Positions 1,454-35,031 of a stretch of 35,031 bases of DNA are shown here, one piece after another. Where the stretch lies: IMG/VR virus record IMGVR_UViG_638341082_000010. The stretch is one strand, 5' to 3'. The position numbers and the translations under genes are program-made. Source of the DNA: a virus. Taxonomy: Duplodnaviria; Heunggongvirae; Uroviricota; Caudoviricetes. The stretch's first letter is position 1. Every line of letters starts with the position of its first letter. The notes below the pieces were generated by a model. It was not told the DNA's origin, searched no databases, and saw only the letters and a list, made by a program, of their open reading frames with translations.

Positions 1454-1780
1454 ATGAATGAAGAACTATTGAGGGCATTGTTTAAGATCCCAGACCCCAT
1501 CACCGTCGATGAATTTGCCCGCCGCACGGGCAAGACCGAATCAGCCGTAAGAAAGTTGGTGGAACGTCGGCTCATCCCTCTGGCCACTGAGCGTGAAGTT
1601 TTAGGCGAGGAAGGAAGTTCACGCCGCCTTCTCATCCTATGGAACGAGTGGCTCGAAATGGTCTATGACGCAACGAAACAACTTCCTCCTGAGCGTAAAG
1701 ATTGGCGCAATCACTGGCTTAATAAAGCCAAGAAGCTGGCGGAAGATTTGGGATTAGGCTTTCTTAATTTTGCTGCATGA
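1454..1780 (+). CDS. cox: Cox/Apl-like excisionase and early regulator
   Basis: 108 aa, first gene divergent from the repressor; HTH-like segment EFARRTGKTESAVRKLVERRLIP resembles the P2 Cox pattern. Confidence 0.55.
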   Translation: MNEELLRALFKIPDPITVDEFARRTGKTESAVRKLVERRLIPLATEREVLGEEGSSRRLLILWNEWLEMVYDATKQLPPERKDWRNHWLNKAKKLAEDLGLGFLNFAA

Positions 1781-4656: not shown

Positions 4657-4776
4657 GTAACCACTATGTACACACAAAAAAACCGCTTGCCATGCCGCAA
4701 TCAGTCAGGTTACATTTCCGCTGCACCTCACAAAACGGGTGCCGGGTTTCGCAGCCTGCTGACAAACATAGCGCAC

Positions 4777-4797
4777 AACCGCGCCAGCGGTTTTTTT
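4777..4797 (+). terminator. Candidate intrinsic terminator (AACCGC-GCCA-GCGGTT then T7)
   Basis: GC stem followed by a 7-T run, read from sequence. Confidence 0.4.
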
Positions 4798-4976
4798 GTG
4801 CGTACTGTATCGCCACGTTTTTTTCGCACACGAATTATGGCGGGGCGTACGGGGCCGACTTCGGTCGGGCCGGGTTCTATGTTTGCCGGTACTGCGAACC
4901 TCGTACGTCTCGCCACCCACAGTTTCGCAGCTCTGGATGGTGAGTTTTCAAAACTTACACACATAGAGGCCACACC

Positions 4977-5207
4977 ATGGCAAACCGCAAACAGCACCGC
5001 GCTATCGCGGAGCGTCGTCACATCCAGACTGAAATCAACCGCAGACTTTCCCGCGCATTCCGCGTCGCTAAAATCATGCACATCAATATGCTGCATGAGC
5101 GTAGCTGCGAACTTTCAAACCTCTACTCATCCGCTGTTTTCAGTTATCTGGCGGATGATCTGCGCGAGCTTCAGCAGCTCATCCAGCAGCAAAACAAACT
5201 CCATTAA
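4977..5207 (+). CDS. Hypothetical small basic protein
   Basis: 76-aa ORF with AGAGG upstream; overlaps only low-quality alternative-frame ORFs. Confidence 0.35.
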   Translation: MANRKQHRAIAERRHIQTEINRRLSRAFRVAKIMHINMLHERSCELSNLYSSAVFSYLADDLRELQQLIQQQNKLH

Positions 5208-5279
5208 TTCCTGTTCCGGGCCTTTCCTGCACCTTGCGGCGGGAGGCCTTCGCACATCTGTAACAAGAGGATTGCCGCA

Positions 5280-5645
5280 ATGATTCTCGCCAACGACTTT
5301 CTTGAATACCTGCTCAACACAGAGCGTGATCTTGCCGTTCGCGTGCGTGAACGTTATGACATGTACCTGAAATCCCTGCCTGTACCGCAGCTCGCTGACG
5401 GAAAGATTGTTATTGATGGTCGCTACATGATTGACAGCCACGAGGGAAATTACAGGCTTTACTGCATTGAAGGTGGCACTCCGTCCGTTATTGGCATTTA
5501 CCAGCGCCCATCCTCTGCAATCGTCGATGTGATTGCCGACAGCATCCGCATCACACATCGCCATGCCGACACAGAAGACACCGTGCTGGAAATTCAGCGG
5601 CTGGCTGCCGTTTGCCGTGACACCCTGAACGGTATGACGCAGTAA
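5280..5645 (+). CDS. Hypothetical protein immediately upstream of A
   Basis: 121-aa ORF with AAGAGGA RBS. Confidence 0.5.
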   Translation: MILANDFLEYLLNTERDLAVRVRERYDMYLKSLPVPQLADGKIVIDGRYMIDSHEGNYRLYCIEGGTPSVIGIYQRPSSAIVDVIADSIRITHRHADTEDTVLEIQRLAAVCRDTLNGMTQ

Positions 5646-5651
5646 ATCAGT

Positions 5652-8474
5652 ATGACGACAGAGTACATCAGGGACTGGCAACAACCGCGCCACGCAGTGG
5701 GGCGTGAAGGAACGGGGATCCCCGCACCTGAATCCGCGCTTTCCTCCTGGCTGGATGCCTACCGGGCAGAGAACGAGCGCCGACAGGAAAAGGCTGATGC
5801 GGCGTTCTCCGCCACGCCGCTGGGCAACCTGATTAATAAAAGCCTGGATGCACAGGAAAAACAGGACAAAACTATCACACTGGCAGGAGACGTCAGAAAA
5901 CAGGCACGCGGCGCGGTGGATGAAGCCATGGCCTCGCTGCGCCTGCTGCCGTCCTATCTGCGCGATCCGCTTATTCGCCACCTCTCCTTCCTGCGCAAAA
6001 AACAGGAAGCCGATCGCCGGAAAGGCAAAAAGAGCTGGCAGGCGGAACGCTATGCACGCGGAACCCTGCGCAAAATATTCGAACGTCTGGATCGCACTGA
6101 CGGACGCTGGCTGACACCGGGTTATCGCTCCCTTGCCGGACGCGAACGCCTGGACGATTTGCTTTACCTGCCGCAGCTCAACAAACACCAGATACAGACG
6201 CTGGCCACCATGACGGCGGCGATGTTCAGCAGCACCTTCGAAAAACTCTGCGATGGCTTTGGCGCGACCGATGGCGAACTGACCATGGATGTAACGCTGA
6301 AGACGTATCAGATGCTGGCCCGCATGGCGTTACACCTGCACATCATGCCTCCACATTATGACGCACTGACAACAGATAAAGACCGGAGGAACGAACCGGA
6401 CACGGAGCTGCTGCCGGGCGCAGTCCTTCGCCTGACCTGTGCGGAATGGTGGAAACGCAAACTGTGGCTGTTACGTTGCGAGTGGAGAGAAGAACAACTC
6501 CGCGCCGCCTGTCTGGTTTCCAGAAAAACATCGCCCTATCTGAGCCAGGGCGCATTAAGCGAGTTTCGCGCACAGCGCGAGAAAACACGCGATTTCCTGA
6601 AAAGTTTCATGCTGGAAAATGAAGACGGGTTCACGATTGATCTCGAGACGGTGTATTACGCGGGAGTAAGTAACCCGGTTCACCGTAAGGCAGAAATGAT
6701 GACCACCATGAAGGGGCTGGAACTTCTGGCCGAAGCCCGTGGCGACAGAGCGGTGTTTCTGACTGTCACCTGCCCGTCAAAATACCACGCAACAACGGAG
6801 AACGGTCATCCGAATCCCAAATGGAACGGGGCCACCATGCGTGACTCCAGCGATTACCTGGTTAACACGTTTTTTGCGGCGGTCCGCAAAAAACTGAACC
6901 GCGACGGTCTTCGCTGGTATGGCATCCGCACGGTGGAGCCTCACCATGACGGCACTGTGCACTGGCATATGATGGTCTTTGCACATCCGGACGAGATTGA
7001 AACCATCGTGTCCCACGTCTGCGATATTGCCATTCAGGAAGACCGCCACGAGCTGGGCGATGACATAACTCCGCGTTTTAAAGCGGAGTACGTCGACGGC
7101 TCAAAAGGCACGCCAACCAGCTACATCGCCACCTACATCGGAAAGAACCTGGACAGCCGCGCCGTGGATGGTATCGACCCGAAAACGGGCAAGCCACGCG
7201 TTGACCACGAAACCGGAAAATCAATGGCCGAGAGCGTGGAGCGCGCCATCGGCTGGGCGCGCCTTCACCGGGTCCGCCAGTTCCAGTTCTTTGGCATCCC
7301 CTCCCGTCAGGTGTGGCGTGAACTGCGCCGCCTTGCCAGCCAGATGGCACGCAACCCGGAAGGCCCGCAACAGCTGAAGGATGACGCAATGGATGCAGTG
7401 CTCGCTGCCGCTGATGCCGGGTGTTTTGCCTCCTACATTGAAAAACAGGGCGGCGTACTTGTTCCACGCAAAGACTACCTGATTCGCACCGCCTACGACC
7501 TCGCAGATGAGCTGAACGATTACGGCGAACAGAGCGTACAGATTTACGGGATCTGGTCACCACTCATCGGGGAGTCTTCCCGTGTGTGCACACATCCGGA
7601 TAACTGGAAGCTGGTAAGACGTAAACCGGAAGCGGAAGACAGCGCCCGCGAAAATGGTTTTGACCTTCAGGGCGGCCCTGCCGCCCCTTGGACTCGTGGC
7701 AATAACTGTCCCCGTGTACAGGAAACGGACAACAACGGGACAGAACAGCCGGAAGAACGGCCAGCACCGTGGCCGCAGCTCCCTGACGGCGTTGAAGTGA
7801 ACGAATGGATGCGCTCACTGAAACGGCACGAACGCCGGGCGCTGATGCGTTCGCTGCGTGACAAGCAGGCAAAAAACAGCAGTGATGAAATGCAGAACTG
7901 GACACAGAGCCGCAAACAGCCACGGCCTTTGCCTGATAACCACGAATTACTCGCTAAAGAATGGCGGGAATCTGCCGAATCTCTCGGCCTGCATATCGGT
8001 GAACAGCAGATGCAGCACCTGTTACGGGGCGGCAGCCTGTACGTTGACGGCAGCATCATTGCACCACAGGGATTTGAAATTGTACGCAAACCGGATACCC
8101 GCCCGGACAGCCGAATCACGCAGCTCTGGCAGCACCTGAGCCGTAATCACGGCGTAAGCAGCACGGAGATCCGCCATAACCCGGTCGCCAGCTATCTGGA
8201 ACAGCTGGGGGCATCAGACCCCGAAGCCGCCGCACGTCTGGCATCCACACTTCAGCAGGACCAGAACACCATGAAAACCCCCGTTACCGTGCTTTCTGAC
8301 ATGCTGCGCGCCATTCGTGACGCAGAGCACGCACAGAGAATCAGTGAAACAACTGAACGCGCCCGCCGCAAAGCAGACCTGCTGCGGGGTGGCCTGACCA
8401 GTAGAAACAAAAAACAGACAGAAACGGGATTCACAAATCCCGTAAATGAGCAAAAAACGCGCCGCGATATATGA
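5652..8474 (+). CDS. A: Rolling-circle replication initiation endonuclease (P2 gpA family) with a long C-terminal extension
   Basis: 940 aa; HUH-type motif VHWHMMVF and paired catalytic tyrosines YIATYIGKN in the central domain. Confidence 0.9.
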   Translation: MTTEYIRDWQQPRHAVGREGTGIPAPESALSSWLDAYRAENERRQEKADAAFSATPLGNLINKSLDAQEKQDKTITLAGDVRKQARGAVDEAMASLRLLPSYLRDPLIRHLSFLRKKQEADRRKGKKSWQAERYARGTLRKIFERLDRTDGRWLTPGYRSLAGRERLDDLLYLPQLNKHQIQTLATMTAAMFSSTFEKLCDGFGATDGELTMDVTLKTYQMLARMALHLHIMPPHYDALTTDKDRRNEPDTELLPGAVLRLTCAEWWKRKLWLLRCEWREEQLRAACLVSRKTSPYLSQGALSEFRAQREKTRDFLKSFMLENEDGFTIDLETVYYAGVSNPVHRKAEMMTTMKGLELLAEARGDRAVFLTVTCPSKYHATTENGHPNPKWNGATMRDSSDYLVNTFFAAVRKKLNRDGLRWYGIRTVEPHHDGTVHWHMMVFAHPDEIETIVSHVCDIAIQEDRHELGDDITPRFKAEYVDGSKGTPTSYIATYIGKNLDSRAVDGIDPKTGKPRVDHETGKSMAESVERAIGWARLHRVRQFQFFGIPSRQVWRELRRLASQMARNPEGPQQLKDDAMDAVLAAADAGCFASYIEKQGGVLVPRKDYLIRTAYDLADELNDYGEQSVQIYGIWSPLIGESSRVCTHPDNWKLVRRKPEAEDSARENGFDLQGGPAAPWTRGNNCPRVQETDNNGTEQPEERPAPWPQLPDGVEVNEWMRSLKRHERRALMRSLRDKQAKNSSDEMQNWTQSRKQPRPLPDNHELLAKEWRESAESLGLHIGEQQMQHLLRGGSLYVDGSIIAPQGFEIVRKPDTRPDSRITQLWQHLSRNHGVSSTEIRHNPVASYLEQLGASDPEAAARLASTLQQDQNTMKTPVTVLSDMLRAIRDAEHAQRISETTERARRKADLLRGGLTSRNKKQTETGFTNPVNEQKTRRDI

Positions 8475-31934: not shown

Positions 31935-32091
31935 AGCTTCAGCCCCTTGTATCCGTTAAATGATTCGGCAACAATCATCACCCACCACGCGCGTAATCTC
32001 ACCCCTGCGCCGTTCTCTCGCCACGGCGACAACAAAAAGCAGTAACCCCCTCCGCACGCACATGCGACCATGCCGCACAGGGAGGGAGCAG

Positions 32092-33198
32092 ATGACCGAC
32101 ACCACCATGCAATTGCTCAGTCAGGGCACAGACCCCGTAAAAATGCCGGATTTTGATATTCTCGCGGAGGGTAAAACGCTGTCAGGCGTGGCAGAGCGCC
32201 TGATGAGCCTGTCACTGACCGACAACCGGGGATTTGAGGCGGACCAGCTCACCATCACGCTGGATGATGCGGATGGTCAGTTGCAGCTACCGCCACGGGG
32301 CGCGCGCCTGACGGTTCTCATTGGCTGGAAGGGAGAACCGCTGACAGAAAAAGGCACTTACATTGTTGATGAAATCGCTCACGAAGGACCGCCGGACAGG
32401 CTGACTGTTTCAGCCAGAAGCGCAGATTTTCGGGATGAATTTAACGTTAAACGTGAGGTGTCCTGGCATGATGTGACCGTTGAGCGTGTGGTATCCGCCA
32501 TCGCTCATCGGTATGGTCTGAAACCGCAAATCAGCGAAATGCTGATGGATATCGAAATCGACCACGCCGACCAGACCGAAGAAAGCGACATGTCCTTCCT
32601 TACGCGCATGGCGGAAATGCTGGGTGCAATCACCACGGTAAAAAGCGGCAATCTGTTATTCATCATGCCAGGTGGTGGCGTGAACGCACAGGGCCAGCCG
32701 TTGCCCTCGTTCGCCATTACACGCAGCAGCGGCGATCGCCATCAGTTCCGCATTGCTGACCGCGAGGCGTATACGGGGGTACGCGCCTACTGGCTTGATC
32801 TTAATTACGGGAAAAAGAAAAAAGTCAGCGTGAAACGCCGTAAACCGCCAAAACCCAAAAAGGAGAAAAGCAGCCGTGAAGGTGATTATATGGAAGGCGC
32901 GGAAGGCAATGTGTTTGTGTTACGCAAGACTTATCAGAACGAGCAGGCAGCAAGACGCGCAGCGGCGGCAAAGTGGCAGCAACTACAACGCGGAGCCGCA
33001 TCATTCTCCATCACGCTGGCGCGTGGACGTGCAGAACTCTACCCCGAAATGCATGGCACGGTAACAGGATTTAAAAGCGAGATTGATAATCAGGACTGGA
33101 TTATTGCAAAAGCCGGGCACACCATTGATAACAGCGGCTTTACCACGCAGCTTGAGCTTGAGGCAAAAATCCCGGAATGGATAGCGGAAACAGAGTGA
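32092..33198 (+). CDS. D: Tail protein D (late control gene D family)
   Basis: 368 aa from ATG with GGGAGGGAG RBS; conserved position upstream of ogr. Confidence 0.85.
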   Translation: MTDTTMQLLSQGTDPVKMPDFDILAEGKTLSGVAERLMSLSLTDNRGFEADQLTITLDDADGQLQLPPRGARLTVLIGWKGEPLTEKGTYIVDEIAHEGPPDRLTVSARSADFRDEFNVKREVSWHDVTVERVVSAIAHRYGLKPQISEMLMDIEIDHADQTEESDMSFLTRMAEMLGAITTVKSGNLLFIMPGGGVNAQGQPLPSFAITRSSGDRHQFRIADREAYTGVRAYWLDLNYGKKKKVSVKRRKPPKPKKEKSSREGDYMEGAEGNVFVLRKTYQNEQAARRAAAAKWQQLQRGAASFSITLARGRAELYPEMHGTVTGFKSEIDNQDWIIAKAGHTIDNSGFTTQLELEAKIPEWIAETE

Positions 33199-33240: not shown

Positions 33241-33501
33241 ATGTTCCGTTGTCCGCTTTGTGGCGCATCTGCCCGTATCCGCACCAGTCGTCCGGAAAAT
33301 GATTCAAACACCGTGCGGCAAAAGTATTACCAGTGTAACAATCTGGAATGCGGCGTATGCTTCTCAACACTGGAAGCTTTCCATAAATTCACATCGAAAC
33401 ACGCCTCCGGCGTTCACTCATCAGAAGGTATCCCGTGGCATGAGCTGCCAGCTTCACACAGGGGAAACAATCAGATGAGTTTGCCTTTACCTCAGAATTA
33501 A
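33241..33501 (+). CDS. ogr: Ogr/Delta-family zinc-finger late transcription activator
   Basis: 86 aa; MFRCPLCG...YYQCNNLECG cysteine pattern resembles P2 Ogr. Confidence 0.85.
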   Translation: MFRCPLCGASARIRTSRPENDSNTVRQKYYQCNNLECGVCFSTLEAFHKFTSKHASGVHSSEGIPWHELPASHRGNNQMSLPLPQN

Positions 33502-33589
33502 CAGGCAGAATTGCCGGAGTAACAAAAAAGCGATAGATTACGTGCGGGTGCCTTTCGGCTGATGGTCGGAGGGAATACCCGAAGGCCAG

Positions 33590-33826
33590 ATGTGGAAAGG
33601 CCCCGGAAAACATTTCTGTTTAACCGAGGCCCTAACACTTCTTACCTTCGCAAGTAGAAGATTAGCGCCTCTCCTCTCAGGAGACAAGCGTTATGACGCA
33701 AATTCCGTTAAAAACCCTGTTACTTTGCATAACTGCGGTAGCGATAATCTGGATCCTCCACACATCACCGTGCGAGTTACGATTCAGGTTTGCTGGCACG
33801 GAAATTGCGGCATTCTTACTATGTAA
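33590..33826 (+). CDS. mok-like overlapping reading frame of a type I toxin locus
   Basis: 78-aa ORF that contains the hok-like ORF in another frame, as in hok/mok loci. Confidence 0.4.
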   Translation: MWKGPGKHFCLTEALTLLTFASRRLAPLLSGDKRYDANSVKNPVTLHNCGSDNLDPPHITVRVTIQVCWHGNCGILTM

Positions 33827-33833
33827 TAAGTAA
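33693..33833 (+). CDS. hok: Hok/Gef-family membrane toxin, 46 aa
   Basis: MTQIPLKTLLLCITAVAIIWILHTSPCELRFRFAGTEIAAFLLCNK: transmembrane helix then CE.R...G.E.AAF motif characteristic of Hok/Gef; AGGAG RBS. Confidence 0.65.
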   Translation: MTQIPLKTLLLCITAVAIIWILHTSPCELRFRFAGTEIAAFLLCNK

Positions 33834-33919
33834 GATAACCGCGACGGGGGAGTAATCCCCCGTCAATCGGTTGCTAAGGTTGGTCGAAACGGCACCCTAT
33901 CTCACAGACATGAACAACA

Positions 33920-33953
33920 AACCCGCAGCGTAAAAACTGCGGGTTTTCTTTTT
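33920..33953 (+). terminator. Intrinsic terminator (AACCCGCAG-N8-CTGCGGGTT then TTCTTTTT)
   Basis: 9-bp stem plus U-tract about 90 nt after the hok stop. Confidence 0.65.
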
Positions 33954-34000
33954 GCTGCCCTCACAAATGAGGGCACCATACATAAGCAATAGGCATAACA

Positions 34001-34035
34001 GATCGATGCAATAAATCCGATCGATAAAAACGATC
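34001..34035. promoter_or_regulatory. Cluster of three GATC sites (GATCGAT repeats) upstream of the com-like gene
   Basis: GATC at about 34001, 34019 and 34032, read from sequence. Confidence 0.55.
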
Positions 34036-34082
34036 GATTTGTTATCATATCGGCAGCAGTAACCACACAAGAGGTGCCGCAA

Positions 34083-34280
34083 ATGACGCAAAATGTACGA
34101 TGCAAAAATTGCAACAAACTACTTGCCCGCGCCTCATTTCACTACATTGAAATAAAATGTCCGCGCTGCAAAACACTTAACCAGATAACGAGAGCCATCG
34201 AGCACCCCACACACATGAGGAGTTATGACCGTGGGGATCGCAATCCAGCACCAACCAGCACATACACCGGAACACACTAA
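34083..34280 (+). CDS. com: Mu Com-like zinc-finger protein
   Basis: 65 aa from ATG with AGAGG RBS; RCKNCNKLL...HYIEIKCPRCK closely resembles Mu Com. Confidence 0.75.
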   Translation: MTQNVRCKNCNKLLARASFHYIEIKCPRCKTLNQITRAIEHPTHMRSYDRGDRNPAPTSTYTGTH

Positions 34281-35031
34281 GGTTTATCAGACTGACAATG
34301 CCACGCTCTGTCGTGGGAATGCGCTGGAAATATTGCCGCTGATTGAGCCAGAAAGTATTGATGCCTTAATCACTGACCCGCCTTACAGTTCAGGCGCGAC
34401 ACACAAGGCCGGACGCACCAACCAGGGCAGCCATGCAAAATATCTGAACGGCGAGAACCTTCACCGCTTTGATGGGTTCGCGGGTGAAAACATGGACGCC
34501 CGTTCGTGGGCTTACTGGACACAATTATGGATGGCACAGGCACACCGCGCAGTCAGGCCGGGCGGTTATGCCCTGGTATTTACTGACTGGCGACAACTAC
34601 CAGCTTTAACCGATGCGTTTCAGGCCAGTGGCTTTACATGGCGCGGCATCATTGCGTGGAACAAGGGGAGGGGGTCACGAACACCACATACCGGGTATTT
34701 CCGGCATCAGTGCGAATACATCGTCTGGGGCAGCAAAGGCCATTTAGATAAATCGCCTTCGGGACCGTTCGACGGCTGCATGACGTTCCCGGTTATCCCG
34801 TCAAAGAAAATGCACCCGACCGGAAAACCAGAAGAACTAATGGCGGAACTGGTCAGGACTGTGAATAGTGGCGGAACAGTCCTTGATCCTTTTATGGGGT
34901 CAGGGACAACGGGTGTGGCTGCACTGAAAGCAGGGCGAAAATTTATTGGTATAGAAACCAGCGATCATTATTTTGAGGTAGCAGCGCAGCGGCTTCGGGG
35001 GACTATTACCACAACCATTTCGGCTACATAA
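34225..35031 (+). CDS. DNA methyltransferase, beta-class amino-MTase (N6-adenine or N4-cytosine)
   Basis: 268 aa; DPPY catalytic motif near the N-terminus and FMGSGTT AdoMet motif near the C-terminus; start overlaps the com 3' end. Confidence 0.85.
   Translation: MTVGIAIQHQPAHTPEHTKVYQTDNATLCRGNALEILPLIEPESIDALITDPPYSSGATHKAGRTNQGSHAKYLNGENLHRFDGFAGENMDARSWAYWTQLWMAQAHRAVRPGGYALVFTDWRQLPALTDAFQASGFTWRGIIAWNKGRGSRTPHTGYFRHQCEYIVWGSKGHLDKSPSGPFDGCMTFPVIPSKKMHPTGKPEELMAELVRTVNSGGTVLDPFMGSGTTGVAALKAGRKFIGIETSDHYFEVAAQRLRGTITTTISAT

Follow-up and report, generated by a model that had tools for sequence, protein, structure and literature searches.

We found that positions 33511..33956 of a 35,031-nucleotide viral sequence (the window; IMG/VR record IMGVR_UViG_638341082_000010) very likely hold a type I toxin-antitoxin module of the hok/sok type, which a P88-like (Xuanwuvirus, P2-like) prophage of E. 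coli carries as accessory cargo. The module is an ordinary Hok-family membrane toxin gene with a self-locking mRNA and a predicted antisense antidote. The gene itself is already known: it is annotated as Hok/Gef in RefSeq and as 'MokW-like host killing' in the records of P88-like phages. An earlier note, made by eye, had proposed that 33540-33960 contain a type I toxin locus of the Hok family, with an mRNA built like those of hok genes. This proposal is borne out by a match to PF01848 and a sub-threshold match to RF01794, by the tac/fbi and tac/ucb pairings, and by promoters, and all of the features it named are present at or near that interval. Support for the locus is now stronger than when it was read by eye, a method that could not reveal the alternative tac/fbi and tac/ucb pairings or the conserved two-strand promoters. 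We class the locus as one that appears to work like hok/sok, rather than as a confirmed three-gene hok/mok/sok system, because the start sites of the overlapping mok ORF are inconsistent and the ORF is absent from P88.

We examined 71 distinct homologues, found mostly by scanning viral contigs with a 15-mer tac pattern; the structure alignment comprised 42 sequences and the dN/dS analysis 778 pairs. The same 15-mer pattern gave only chance matches, in unrelated phyla, when run against genome contigs. Searches with blastn from the window did not reach R1 hok or hokW. Homology to these two loci therefore rests on the covariance model, the protein profile, and position.

Profile scores place the peptide in the Hok/Gef family, but in neither the HokA nor the R1-type Hok subfamily. 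The coding sequence (33693..33833, plus strand) is an ATG-initiated ORF for a 46-aa peptide, MTQIPLKTLLLCITAVAIIWILHTSPCELRFRFAGTEIAAFLLCNK. This peptide matches Pfam PF01848 (HOK_GEF) with 33.8 bits against a gathering score of 22 (E 2.5e-8), with residues 9-44 aligned to profile positions 7-42 of 42. It also matches PHROG 251 (E 2.8e-13), and an identical sequence, RefSeq WP_032140709.1, is named 'Hok/Gef family protein'. Thus, the Hok/Gef signature that had been read in the 46-aa ORF holds up in the family profile search proposed as its check, and the RefSeq name agrees. The NCBIfam models for the HokA equivalog (NF007290; 27.7 bits against a cut-off of 89) and the Hok subfamily (NF007279; 25.2 against 73) are not reached. 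The peptide is therefore not an orthologue of HokA or of any named K-12 Hok, its HokA score being far below the equivalog cut-off. A protein similarity search, which used a word index on a short peptide, returned six clusters, all of them E. coli Hok/Gef. No PADLOC model matches the peptide, and neither it nor the P88 peptide matched the part of the supplement text that was available for a Hok catalogue preprint.

The peptide follows the family pattern of an N-terminal hydrophobic helix, here LLLCITAVAIIWIL, and then a periplasmic tail of the form C-E-x-R … E-x-A-x-F; its 46 residues fit the Hok length range of ~45-55 aa. Nine residues (M1, C12, T14, C27, E28, R30, E37, A39, and F41) are common to the peptide, R1 Hok, and HokW. 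The published Hok logo comprises M1, C16, T18, L30, C31, E32, and E41. Six of these seven are present in the peptide (M1, C12, T14, C27, E28, and E37, aligned with R1 Hok and HokW), and the conserved Leu before the CE motif is Pro. We show that the peptide is under purifying selection, with a median dN/dS of 0.23 and values below 1 in 778 of 778 pairs. Of the 71 homologues, 67 have an intact ORF free of frameshifts.

The hok locus belongs to the phage, as cargo, and is not part of the host flank. Genes run in the order D-ogr-hok-com-methylase-attR-raiA, with hok between the late activator ogr and the com/DNA-methylase pair, ~1.3 kb inside attR. The earlier note had allowed either prophage cargo or host chromosome marking the att boundary. 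Cargo is the part that stands, and a flanking host locus has a negligible probability. Such a flank would fit P2, in which ogr is the last gene before att. However, E. coli E700025 has ogr-hok-com-methylase followed by raiA, and a 25-nt direct repeat with one mismatch, AAAAAACGCGCCCGAAGG(C/T)GCGTTG, lies both ~100 nt past the methylase stop and between int and pheL. This places the att core of E700025 at the raiA terminator, beyond the methylase. Phage records also hold the module within the phage genome (D-ogr-hok-com-methylase-int in Chuche, ogr-hok in P88 and P88_4B11), and prophages that reside on plasmids bring it along. Besides these plasmid-borne prophages, P88, Chuche, P88_4B11, and Shae_phiSM have hok next to ogr. 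What follows hok differs between phages, being com-methylase here and other genes, or int directly, elsewhere. Enrichment of Hok genes in prophages is known; for hok adjoining ogr in P2-like phages, we found nothing specific in the literature.

The 46-aa hok clade is widespread in E. coli. It occurs in 1756 of 5426 complete genomes (~32%), where it is routinely annotated Hok/Gef. The E. coli copies number roughly 3000, with up to nine in one genome. The exact variant (at least 95% identity) is found in only 43 of the 5426. Stx phages with hokW often also hold a separate copy of the 46-aa clade.

A weak but conserved promoter is predicted to start a hok mRNA of ~408 nt at about 33546. Read from the sequence, this promoter (33511..33539, plus strand) has a -35 element TTGCCG (33511..33516), a 17-nt spacer, and a -10 element TAGATT (33534..33539), and the predicted transcription start is at about G33546. 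Both hexamers match the consensus weakly, and a consensus promoter scanner missed the promoter because only 8 of 12 positions match. In 36 of 37 distinct upstream contexts, which include the ogr 3' end, lambdoid, and plasmid sequences, a TTGnnn/TAnnnT pair lies at a constant distance from GGGTGCC, while the intervening sequence differs. GGGTGCC is also the 5' boundary of homology across contexts.

The predicted full-length mRNA (33546..33953, plus strand) is delimited by the start of the RF01794 alignment, the homology boundary, and the terminator. Its 3' end is set by an intrinsic terminator (33919..33956), which the terminator scan resolved as a 10-bp stem (33919..33946) followed by TCTTTTTGCT, with a folding energy of -16.3 kcal/mol (z = -3.9). 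The intrinsic terminator that the earlier note had placed downstream of hok is therefore present, with both its stem and its T-run. The 408-nt transcript has a minimum free energy (MFE) of -164.2 kcal/mol, compared with -113.4 for shuffles (z = -8.6). The covariance search for hok mRNA that the earlier note had recommended gave a mixed outcome. Model positions 1-157 of the Rfam hok leader RF01794 align at 33546..33704 on the plus strand with an E-value of 5.8e-9, but the score of 45.4 bits falls short of the 59 bits set for gathering. So do the scores of five further clade members (42-51 bits); R1 (88.9) and hokW (113.5) pass.

A GNRA-capped hairpin after hok had likewise been noticed by eye, and we locate it at 33843..33864 on the plus strand. 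It has a 9-bp stem and a GUAA loop (-19.7 kcal/mol, z = -5.2), is 100% paired in 42 homologues, and has four pairs that change on both sides, which is compensatory. By analogy with R1 hok mRNA, which has a 3' stem-loop (PMC9841398), this hairpin is predicted to protect the 3' side of the processed mRNA.

Folding models suggest that the full-length RNA locks itself, with tac paired to fbi and the hok Shine-Dalgarno (SD) sequence and AUG buried, and that tac can pair with ucb instead. The tac element forms the 5' end of the mRNA (33546..33563). Its 3' complement fbi (…GGUCGAAACGGCACCC, 33878..33896) pairs with it over 18 pairs in the MFE structure, and 42 homologues show 90% pairing in this helix. 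Substitutions in fbi preserve it, for example from G-U to G-C in 16 sequences and from U-G to U-A in seven. The alternative partner is a ucb-like box (GGAAAGGCCCC, 33594..33604; all three elements on the plus strand), which is complementary to tac. Ten pairs join 33546..33556 to 33594..33604, with 97.9% pairing over 42 homologues, and the RNAalifold consensus likewise pairs alignment columns 1-11 with 52-61. When tac-ucb is forced in the 3'-truncated RNA, the energy equals the MFE (-129.8 kcal/mol). Because tac is nearly invariant, support for both helices consists mostly of one-sided changes and conservation rather than compensatory pairs; the ucb-paired positions barely vary. The covariation score of the whole structure exceeds those of 500 of 500 shuffles and of all slid controls.

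Translation initiation is buried by a hairpin at 33663..33693 (plus strand, -13.9 kcal/mol), which takes in the SD GGAG (33681..33684) and the first base of the AUG. The hok SD has a probability of being unpaired of at most 0.02 in the full-length RNA, and the outer helix of the hairpin is 100% paired in 42 homologues. This hairpin is mutually exclusive with another conserved hairpin, GAGGC-CUAAC / GUUAG-GCCUC. The hok AUG also pairs with the downstream 'AAF' codons, in a helix that is 99.5% paired; its R1 equivalent is the 9-bp complement GCCATGAAA / TTTCATGGC. With tac-ucb forced in the truncated RNA, the AUG is unpaired (P ~0.97) and the hok SD is still paired.

A conserved sigma-70-type promoter on the opposite strand appears to point into the hok leader. 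This predicted Sok promoter (33659..33687, minus strand) has a -35 element TTGTCT (33687..33682), a 17-nt spacer, and a -10 element TAATCT (33664..33659). A TTGnnn-17/18-TAnnnT antisense motif is present in 71 of 71 homologues. The -10 element is weak relative to the consensus, and a generic scanner missed both the hok and the Sok promoters. The predicted promoter shares its position and spacing with TTGCGC-17-TATCCT, which we take to be the R1 Sok promoter motif, and likewise with a TTGCCT-17-TAACCT motif in the sokW locus. Mutations in the sokW -10 promoter abolish antitoxin activity (PMC8621323), and, judged by its position in sokW, the TTGCCT-17-TAACCT motif would be the mutated element.

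The predicted Sok-like RNA is ~60 nt long (33592..33651, minus strand), with ends placed by analogy with R1 Sok and sokW. It would begin with a single-stranded tail, continue into a strong hairpin (33632..33600), and end in UUUCC; its predicted terminator has a short U-run only. Its folding energy is -22.9 kcal/mol (z = -3.3), and the tail-plus-hairpin layout is that of R1 Sok, which is 64 nt long. For sokW, 71 nt are complementary (PMC8621323). The earlier note had expected a Sok-like RNA opposite the mok start, around 33560..33640. The predicted RNA (~33651..33592) overlaps this interval, but it is shifted to the right, so that it adjoins rather than covers the ATG of the putative mok.

Extrapolating from R1 hok/sok and hokW/sokW, we suggest how these parts could act together. 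Slow 3' trimming to the GNRA hairpin would remove fbi. The leader would then refold, with tac pairing ucb and the GAGGC…GCCUC target hairpin forming. The refolded mRNA would be translatable unless the unstable ~60-nt Sok-like RNA bound it and triggered RNase III decay. Once the supply of Sok stopped, Hok would be made and the inner membrane depolarised. Several results count against this as the best explanation: the RF01794 and NCBIfam scores lie below their cut-offs, tac is nearly invariant, the predicted Sok terminator has a short U-run, the Sok -10 and both hok promoter hexamers are weak, Pro replaces the conserved Leu, the SD is not predicted to open in the truncated RNA, and mok is not conserved. 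For the phage, the payoff could be prophage addiction, earlier lysis on induction (as with hokW-sokW), or the exclusion of other phages.

Whether translation of a leader frame has a part in this scheme depends on the status of the overlapping ORF. The earlier note had described hok as nested in a mok-like frame. A 78-codon ORF with an ATG start is indeed present in the window (33590..33826, plus strand, in a frame other than that of hok), but its status as mok is doubtful. A canonical hok/mok/sok arrangement, in which this ORF is a true mok whose translation opens the SD hairpin while Sok blocks mok initiation as in R1, is possible but on balance unlikely. The ORF has GAAGG ahead of its ATG, reads through the SD hairpin, and terminates 7 nt short of the hok stop codon; the ATG at this position hardly varies across the alignment. 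The Sok duplex predicted at 33592..33651 starts 2 nt past this ATG and could therefore block initiation there. The R1 mok SD motif GAGG is also conserved at 33626..33629. Furthermore, no fold exposes the hok SD, so something has to unwind it. Against this, an ORF of any ATG, GTG, or TTG start that overlaps hok occurs in only 28 of the 71 homologues, with three different start places (alignment position 23, 51, or ~108), and the 'mok' frame is thus probably not a conserved element of the clade. P88, Chuche, P88_4B11, 1720a-02, and most Stx-phage copies lack the ORF, because their frame has no start codon and is interrupted by stops. A stop (TGA or TAG) comes directly after the conserved ATG in three aligned homologues. 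The variable leader segment often gains or loses single nucleotides, which shifts the frame at no apparent cost, the conserved GAGG has no start codon downstream at the R1 spacing, and the ORF product matches no Pfam or PHROG family. A short upstream ORF that ends at the SD hairpin was also considered as a mok substitute, acting by termination-coupled unwinding; its stops scatter, and nine of the 71 homologues have none, so we reject it as a mechanism for the clade in general.

We tentatively put forward a mok-free switch for the 46-aa clade, one candidate that we would not favour outright, in which Hok is gated purely by RNA structure. Here, 3' trimming would let tac take ucb, freeing GAGGC-CUAAC to pair with GUUAG-GCCUC. 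This pairing would compete with the hairpin that buries the hok SD and AUG. Sok would then capture the GAGGC-CUAAC arm and recruit RNase III, rather than block a leader ORF. A Sok-tail target that is hypervariable and is exchanged along with the toxin, as one cassette, could give co-resident copies private antidotes. Thermodynamic folding alone does not support this model, because the SD stays paired in the truncated RNA. There is also a small chance that the locus is a decayed or silenced remnant, which looks like hok/sok although the toxin is no longer produced, as at several K-12 chromosomal hok loci. Pedersen and Gerdes reportedly described such inactivation of K-12 hok loci in 1999. A hok SD that is never predicted to open, the lack of a conserved mok, the weak promoters, and the Leu to Pro change would all fit decay. 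However, the intact ORF of 67 of the 71 homologues and the dN/dS below 1 in every pair argue for a maintained gene, and conservation extends to the two-strand promoters, tac, ucb, fbi, and the 3' hairpin, none of which is damaged. Moreover, many P88-like phages have retained the module in the same position, and of 45 diverse Hok peptides tested, 42 proved toxic.

As a discovery, the hok/sok-type module matters little; its practical value lies in annotation. In P88-like phages, it is the last conserved module that precedes the variable cargo slot and att. Its RNA parts (Sok, tac, ucb, and fbi) are annotated nowhere, and Rfam misses the whole clade at the gathering threshold. For type I toxin-antitoxin specialists, the point of note is that mok, considered essential in R1, is not conserved in an abundant clade. 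If this proves true experimentally, the clade would be a natural system for studying Hok translation activation without a leader ORF.

The module shares its anatomy with known hok systems. The chromosomal K-12 hokA-E genes belong to the same Pfam family, with HokA the best NCBIfam model for the peptide, but they are part of the core chromosome, whereas this locus sits on a mobile element. R1 hok/mok/sok, whose mechanism is the basis of our comparison (PMC9841398), encodes a Hok peptide 33% identical over the alignment, with the C…T…CE.R…E.A.F pattern in common. Both leaders match RF01794, here below its gathering score, and in both the 5' tac has two alternative partners, a 3' fbi and an upstream ucb, the AUG is paired to downstream 'AAF' codons, the SD lies in a hairpin with a CCUC anti-SD, and a stem-loop stands at the 3' side, here with a predicted protective role. 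The position and 17-nt spacing of the predicted antisense promoter also agree. Conversely, the peptide here has 46 aa and ends LLCNK, whereas R1 Hok has 52 aa and ends AYESGK. Leader similarity is too low for blastn, with RF01794 giving 45 bits here and 89 for R1; an ATG is missing where R1 mok has its start, and the clade lacks a conserved mok frame; and the carrier is a prophage rather than a plasmid.

The hokW-sokW locus of the Stx2 prophage Sp5/933W is the best available model for the function of this module. It too is a prophage-borne hok locus, with a similar antisense sigma-70-like motif (TTGCCT-17-TAACCT there, TTGTCT-17-TAATCT here), an mRNA that begins GGGUGC…, and a hairpin of the GGGGGAGUAAUC… type past the stop codon. 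It is a working type I system, dependent on RNase III and Hfq, that speeds lysis after induction: Sok is lost, toxic HokW goes to the inner membrane, and cells lyse earlier (PMC8621323). The two differ in that HokW has 51 aa and is 28% identical, hokW has an upstream ATG in frame with hok that yields a 70-aa product annotated as a gef homologue, RF01794 scores 113.5 bits there against 45.4 here, and its host phage is lambdoid rather than P2-like.

Related genes are found in the P88-like phages (Xuanwuvirus: P88, P88_4B11, Chuche, and Shae_phiSM), which have a 46-aa hok with the same mRNA anatomy directly after ogr. In P88, nt 1-88 of the mRNA are 100% identical and the 3' hairpin is 95% identical. 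In contrast, the central segment, which holds the Sok-tail target, the Sok promoter, and the hok coding sequence, is only 62-69% identical, and the peptide 48%. From this pattern of identity, the segment looks like a swapped cassette of toxin plus specificity.

The 46-aa ORF described in the earlier note is a gene of the Hok/Gef toxin family. It lies at 33693..33833 (+), and its product, MTQIPLKTLLLCITAVAIIWILHTSPCELRFRFAGTEIAAFLLCNK, passes the Pfam HOK_GEF profile (33.8 bits; gathering score 22) and matches PHROG 251 ("MokW-like host killing") with an E value of 2.8e-13. Its scores against the NCBIfam HokA and Hok models are far under their cut-offs. Taken together, these matches make the peptide a member of the Hok/Gef family and an orthologue of no named Hok. 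In alignment, it shares M1, C12, T14, C27, E28, R30, E37, A39, and F41 with plasmid R1 Hok and with HokW, the toxin of the hokW-sokW system of Stx2 prophage Sp5/933W. Seven residues are reported to be conserved among 1264 Hok peptides; six are present here, and the seventh (Leu) is replaced by Pro. Purifying selection acts on the hok frame: dN/dS has a median of 0.23 and is below 1 for every pair compared (778/778).

The hok locus is phage cargo. The window extends from the integrase stop codon (position 1) to the DNA methyltransferase stop codon (35031) of a P2-like prophage. Its right end comprises gpD (31960..33198), ogr (33241..33501; Pfam Ogr_Delta), the hok locus, a Com-like zinc ribbon ORF (34074..34280, +), and an N6/N4 DNA methyltransferase (34225..35031, +) whose start the Com-like ORF overlaps. 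Phage Chuche has the order tail protein (in the gpD position), ogr, hok, com, methylase, int, repressor, and cox. Similarly, hok is immediately 3' of ogr in P88 and P88_4B11, and plasmid-borne prophage copies have an identical ogr-hok arrangement. The genes beyond hok differ: com-methylase in the window, other genes in P88_4B11 and Shae_phiSM, and int directly in pC-Ec2-KPC. In E. coli E700025, raiA lies beyond the methylase and pheL-pheA beyond the integrase end, such that the prophage sits between raiA and pheL. The att core in this strain is the direct repeat AAAAAACGCGCCCGAAGG(C/T)GCGTTG, which looks like the raiA terminator hairpin. One copy is found ~100 nt beyond the methylase stop and the other between int and pheL (L004 5936..5960 and L256 about 1480..1510, E700025 regions just beyond the right and left ends of the window, respectively). 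The hok locus therefore lies ~1.3 kb inside attR. The earlier note had wavered between prophage cargo and host flank; the shared ogr-hok order and the att core beyond the methylase decide for cargo. The interval from int stop to methylase stop is 187 bp longer in E700025, and thus the copy in the window is a slightly different one.

The Com-like/methyltransferase overlap resembles the Mu com/mom layout, but the methylase is an ordinary type II-like or orphan enzyme. Just upstream of the Com-like ORF, three GATCGAT motifs (GATC at 34001, 34019, and 34032) fall within 35 nt; GATC density over the whole window is one per 417 nt. Within the span considered (33995..35031, +), this cluster overlaps a promoter-like TCGATA-16-TATCAT (34021..34048). 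The Mu mom promoter is under Dam-dependent control, of which this arrangement is reminiscent. In the early region (4723..4920, +), a gathering-level Rfam match to isrK (4723..4797; 65.4 bits) stands next to one to C4 antisense RNA (4833..4920; 83.5 bits). C4 RNA is known from the P1/P7 immunity system.

Relatives of the locus are widespread in E. coli. From ogr to the window end (1.8 kb), the sequence matches the chromosomes of E. coli E700025 and E1535 at every position (100% identity), and there RefSeq labels the same ORF "Hok/Gef family protein" (WP_032140709.1). Of 5426 complete E. coli genomes, 1756 carry relatives of the 421-nt locus (70-100% identity), as many as 9 in a single genome, and almost all of these are annotated Hok/Gef. 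Copies of 95% identity or more are present in 43 genomes. The best phage-record matches (81-84%) are P88-like, genus Xuanwuvirus (Chuche, P88, P88_4B11, 500465-2, and Citrobacter phage Shae_phiSM), followed by many Stx-converting lambdoid phages at about 76%. Some IMG/VR viral contigs carry tandem pairs of complete hok loci, 450-720 nt apart (L154: 4318..4683 and 5040..5405; L234: 5545..5910 and 6000..6365), whose leader variable segments differ between the two copies. The enrichment of hok in prophages is already reported in the literature, and public annotation already holds the gene, its family, and its occurrence in P88-like phages. The residual novelty lies in mok apparently not being conserved, in the mosaic structure, and in Rfam missing the clade.

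The hok mRNA has a conserved promoter and a divergent leader. The promoter, TTGCCG-17-TAGATT (33511..33539, +), is upstream of 33546. Its -35 and -10 elements keep their distance from GGGTGCC over 37 distinct upstream contexts while the remaining sequence changes, the one exception being a copy with a rearranged 5' end. This constancy fixes the predicted transcription start. Rfam model RF01794, although named "sok", covers the sense strand of hok and stops at its AUG. We ran it on 33546..33704 and on L002 (the P88 record), L003, L007, L010, L011, and L013. The window leader aligns end to end (E 5.8e-9), but its 45.4 bits fall short of the gathering score (59), a threshold that both R1-type hok (88.9 bits) and hokW (113.5 bits) exceed. 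Five other members of the 46-aa clade (relatives of the window's peptide) reach 42-51 bits. Thus, this abundant clade is a divergent branch, which standard Rfam annotation misses.

The predicted transcript is strongly structured. Its 408 nt (33546..33953) fold at -164.2 kcal/mol, where shuffled sequences average -113.4 (z = -8.6), with the first 18 nt (tac, 33546..33563) paired with 33878..33896 (fbi), directly 5' of the terminator. In this fold model, the pairing corresponds to the tac/fbi lock of hok mRNAs, the mechanism of which is summarized in PMC9841398. The transcript also has a post-stop GUAA-loop hairpin (33843..33864), then a terminator 3' of fbi.

These pairings are conserved among homologues. 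We assembled 71 distinct loci from annotated records and IMG/VR, and thinned them to 42 aligned sequences (<97.5% identity). Over these, tac/fbi is 90% paired, and changes on the fbi side preserve pairs. RNAalifold prefers to pair the same 5' end with the upstream box (ucb), GGAAAGGCCCC (33594..33604), in a tac/ucb stem that is 98% paired. Because tac is almost invariant, both pairings rest on conservation and one-sided changes. The alignment also forms a GAGGC-CUAAC / GUUAG-GCCUC hairpin, equivalent to the Sok-target hairpin of the Rfam consensus; it cannot coexist with the hairpin in which the hok Shine-Dalgarno (SD) is buried. The hok AUG and next two codons (AUGACGCAA, 33693..33701) are complementary to UUGCGGCAU (33805..33813), ~110 nt downstream where the conserved I-A-A-F motif is encoded; the helix they form is 99.5% paired. 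This constraint ties conservation of the peptide to RNA structure. An equivalent complement of 9 bp, with a different sequence, exists in R1 (GCCATGAAA / TTTCATGGC). The post-stop hairpin is 100% paired, with four pairs changed on both sides. Covariation over the whole structure scores higher than every one of 500 column shuffles and every slid control.

A Sok-like antisense RNA is predicted opposite the leader. Its promoter would be TTGTCT (33687..33682), 17 nt, TAATCT (33664..33659) on the (-) strand. Position and spacing are those of TTGCGC-17-TATCCT, which we take to be the R1 Sok promoter, and of a TTGCCT-17-TAACCT motif that we located in the sokW locus. Judging from its position, the latter is probably the element whose -10 mutation abolishes sokW antitoxin activity (PMC8621323). 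All 71 homologues have TTGnnn-17/18-TAnnnT at this site; a generic promoter scanner did not report it in the window, as it has too few consensus matches. R1 Sok is 64 nt long and starts 7 nt after the -10 (the R1 sequence used is 100% identical to plasmid records). An analogous Sok-like RNA would extend here from about 33651 to about 33592 (-). Its predicted fold has a single-stranded 5' tail, a strong hairpin, and UUUCC (-22.9 kcal/mol, z = -3.3).

Sequence comparison leads us to conclude that mok is probably not a conserved part of the 46-aa clade. The mok-like frame noted earlier does exist as an ORF in the window (33590..33826, +) and in its four near-identical relatives, but does not hold up as a conserved element: only 28 of the 71 homologues have an ATG-, GTG-, or TTG-initiated ORF overlapping hok, from three different starts. 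P88, Chuche, P88_4B11, 1720a-02, and most Stx-phage copies have no start codon and have in-frame stops in the overlapping frame, and three aligned homologues share a conserved ATG followed by an immediate stop codon. Leader 1-nt indels shift the frame freely, and no start codon occurs at the R1 mok spacing after the conserved GAGG. It is rather doubtful that the ORF of this allele serves as mok. The authors of a recent Hok catalogue likewise state that Mok is not reliably identifiable, and left it out. As mok fails at clade level, the locus cannot be counted as a confirmed case of the three-gene hok/mok/sok scheme. When the RNA is cut 3' of the GNRA hairpin, a forced tac-ucb conformer has exactly the minimum free energy (-129.8 kcal/mol) and exposes the AUG, not the SD. 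Thermodynamic SD opening after refolding, in which the SD stays closed, fails to explain hok activation, as does an upstream ORF terminating at the SD hairpin.

The locus is a mosaic relative to P88 (33546..33911 vs. L002 3067..3432). Identity is 100% over nucleotides 1-88 of the mRNA (tac, ucb, and Sok hairpin), falls to 62-69% over the Sok-tail target, Sok promoter, and hok CDS, and is 95% in the 3' hairpin. From these identities, toxin and antisense recognition segment appear to have been swapped as a single cassette. The parts that vary most over the clade are the Sok hairpin, Sok-tail target (33634..33659), and 3' fbi. Variation of this kind would be in keeping with private antidotes where a genome holds as many as 9 copies.

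The hok transcript would be driven by a weak constitutive promoter. In the predicted fold, the full-length mRNA is locked: tac/fbi is closed, and both SD and AUG are buried. Fold and alignment indicate an alternative tac/ucb conformer and a target hairpin. The predicted antisense promoter would be convergent with this transcript. If R1 and hokW-sokW are a guide, 3' exonucleolytic trimming to the GNRA hairpin would take off fbi, the leader would refold, and Sok would bind the exposed target, leading to duplex destruction by RNase III. Were Sok transcription stopped or outpaced, Hok would be made and inserted into the inner membrane. A terminator scan found none between ogr and hok, so late-phase ogr read-through could oppose the convergent Sok promoter. 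This idea is speculative but agrees with sokW RNA being lost once the prophage is induced (PMC8621323). The phage could benefit through prophage addiction, through lysis that comes earlier (as in Sp5), or by excluding superinfecting phages. The locus is a member of the Hok/Gef protein family and probably works like R1 hok/sok and hokW-sokW.
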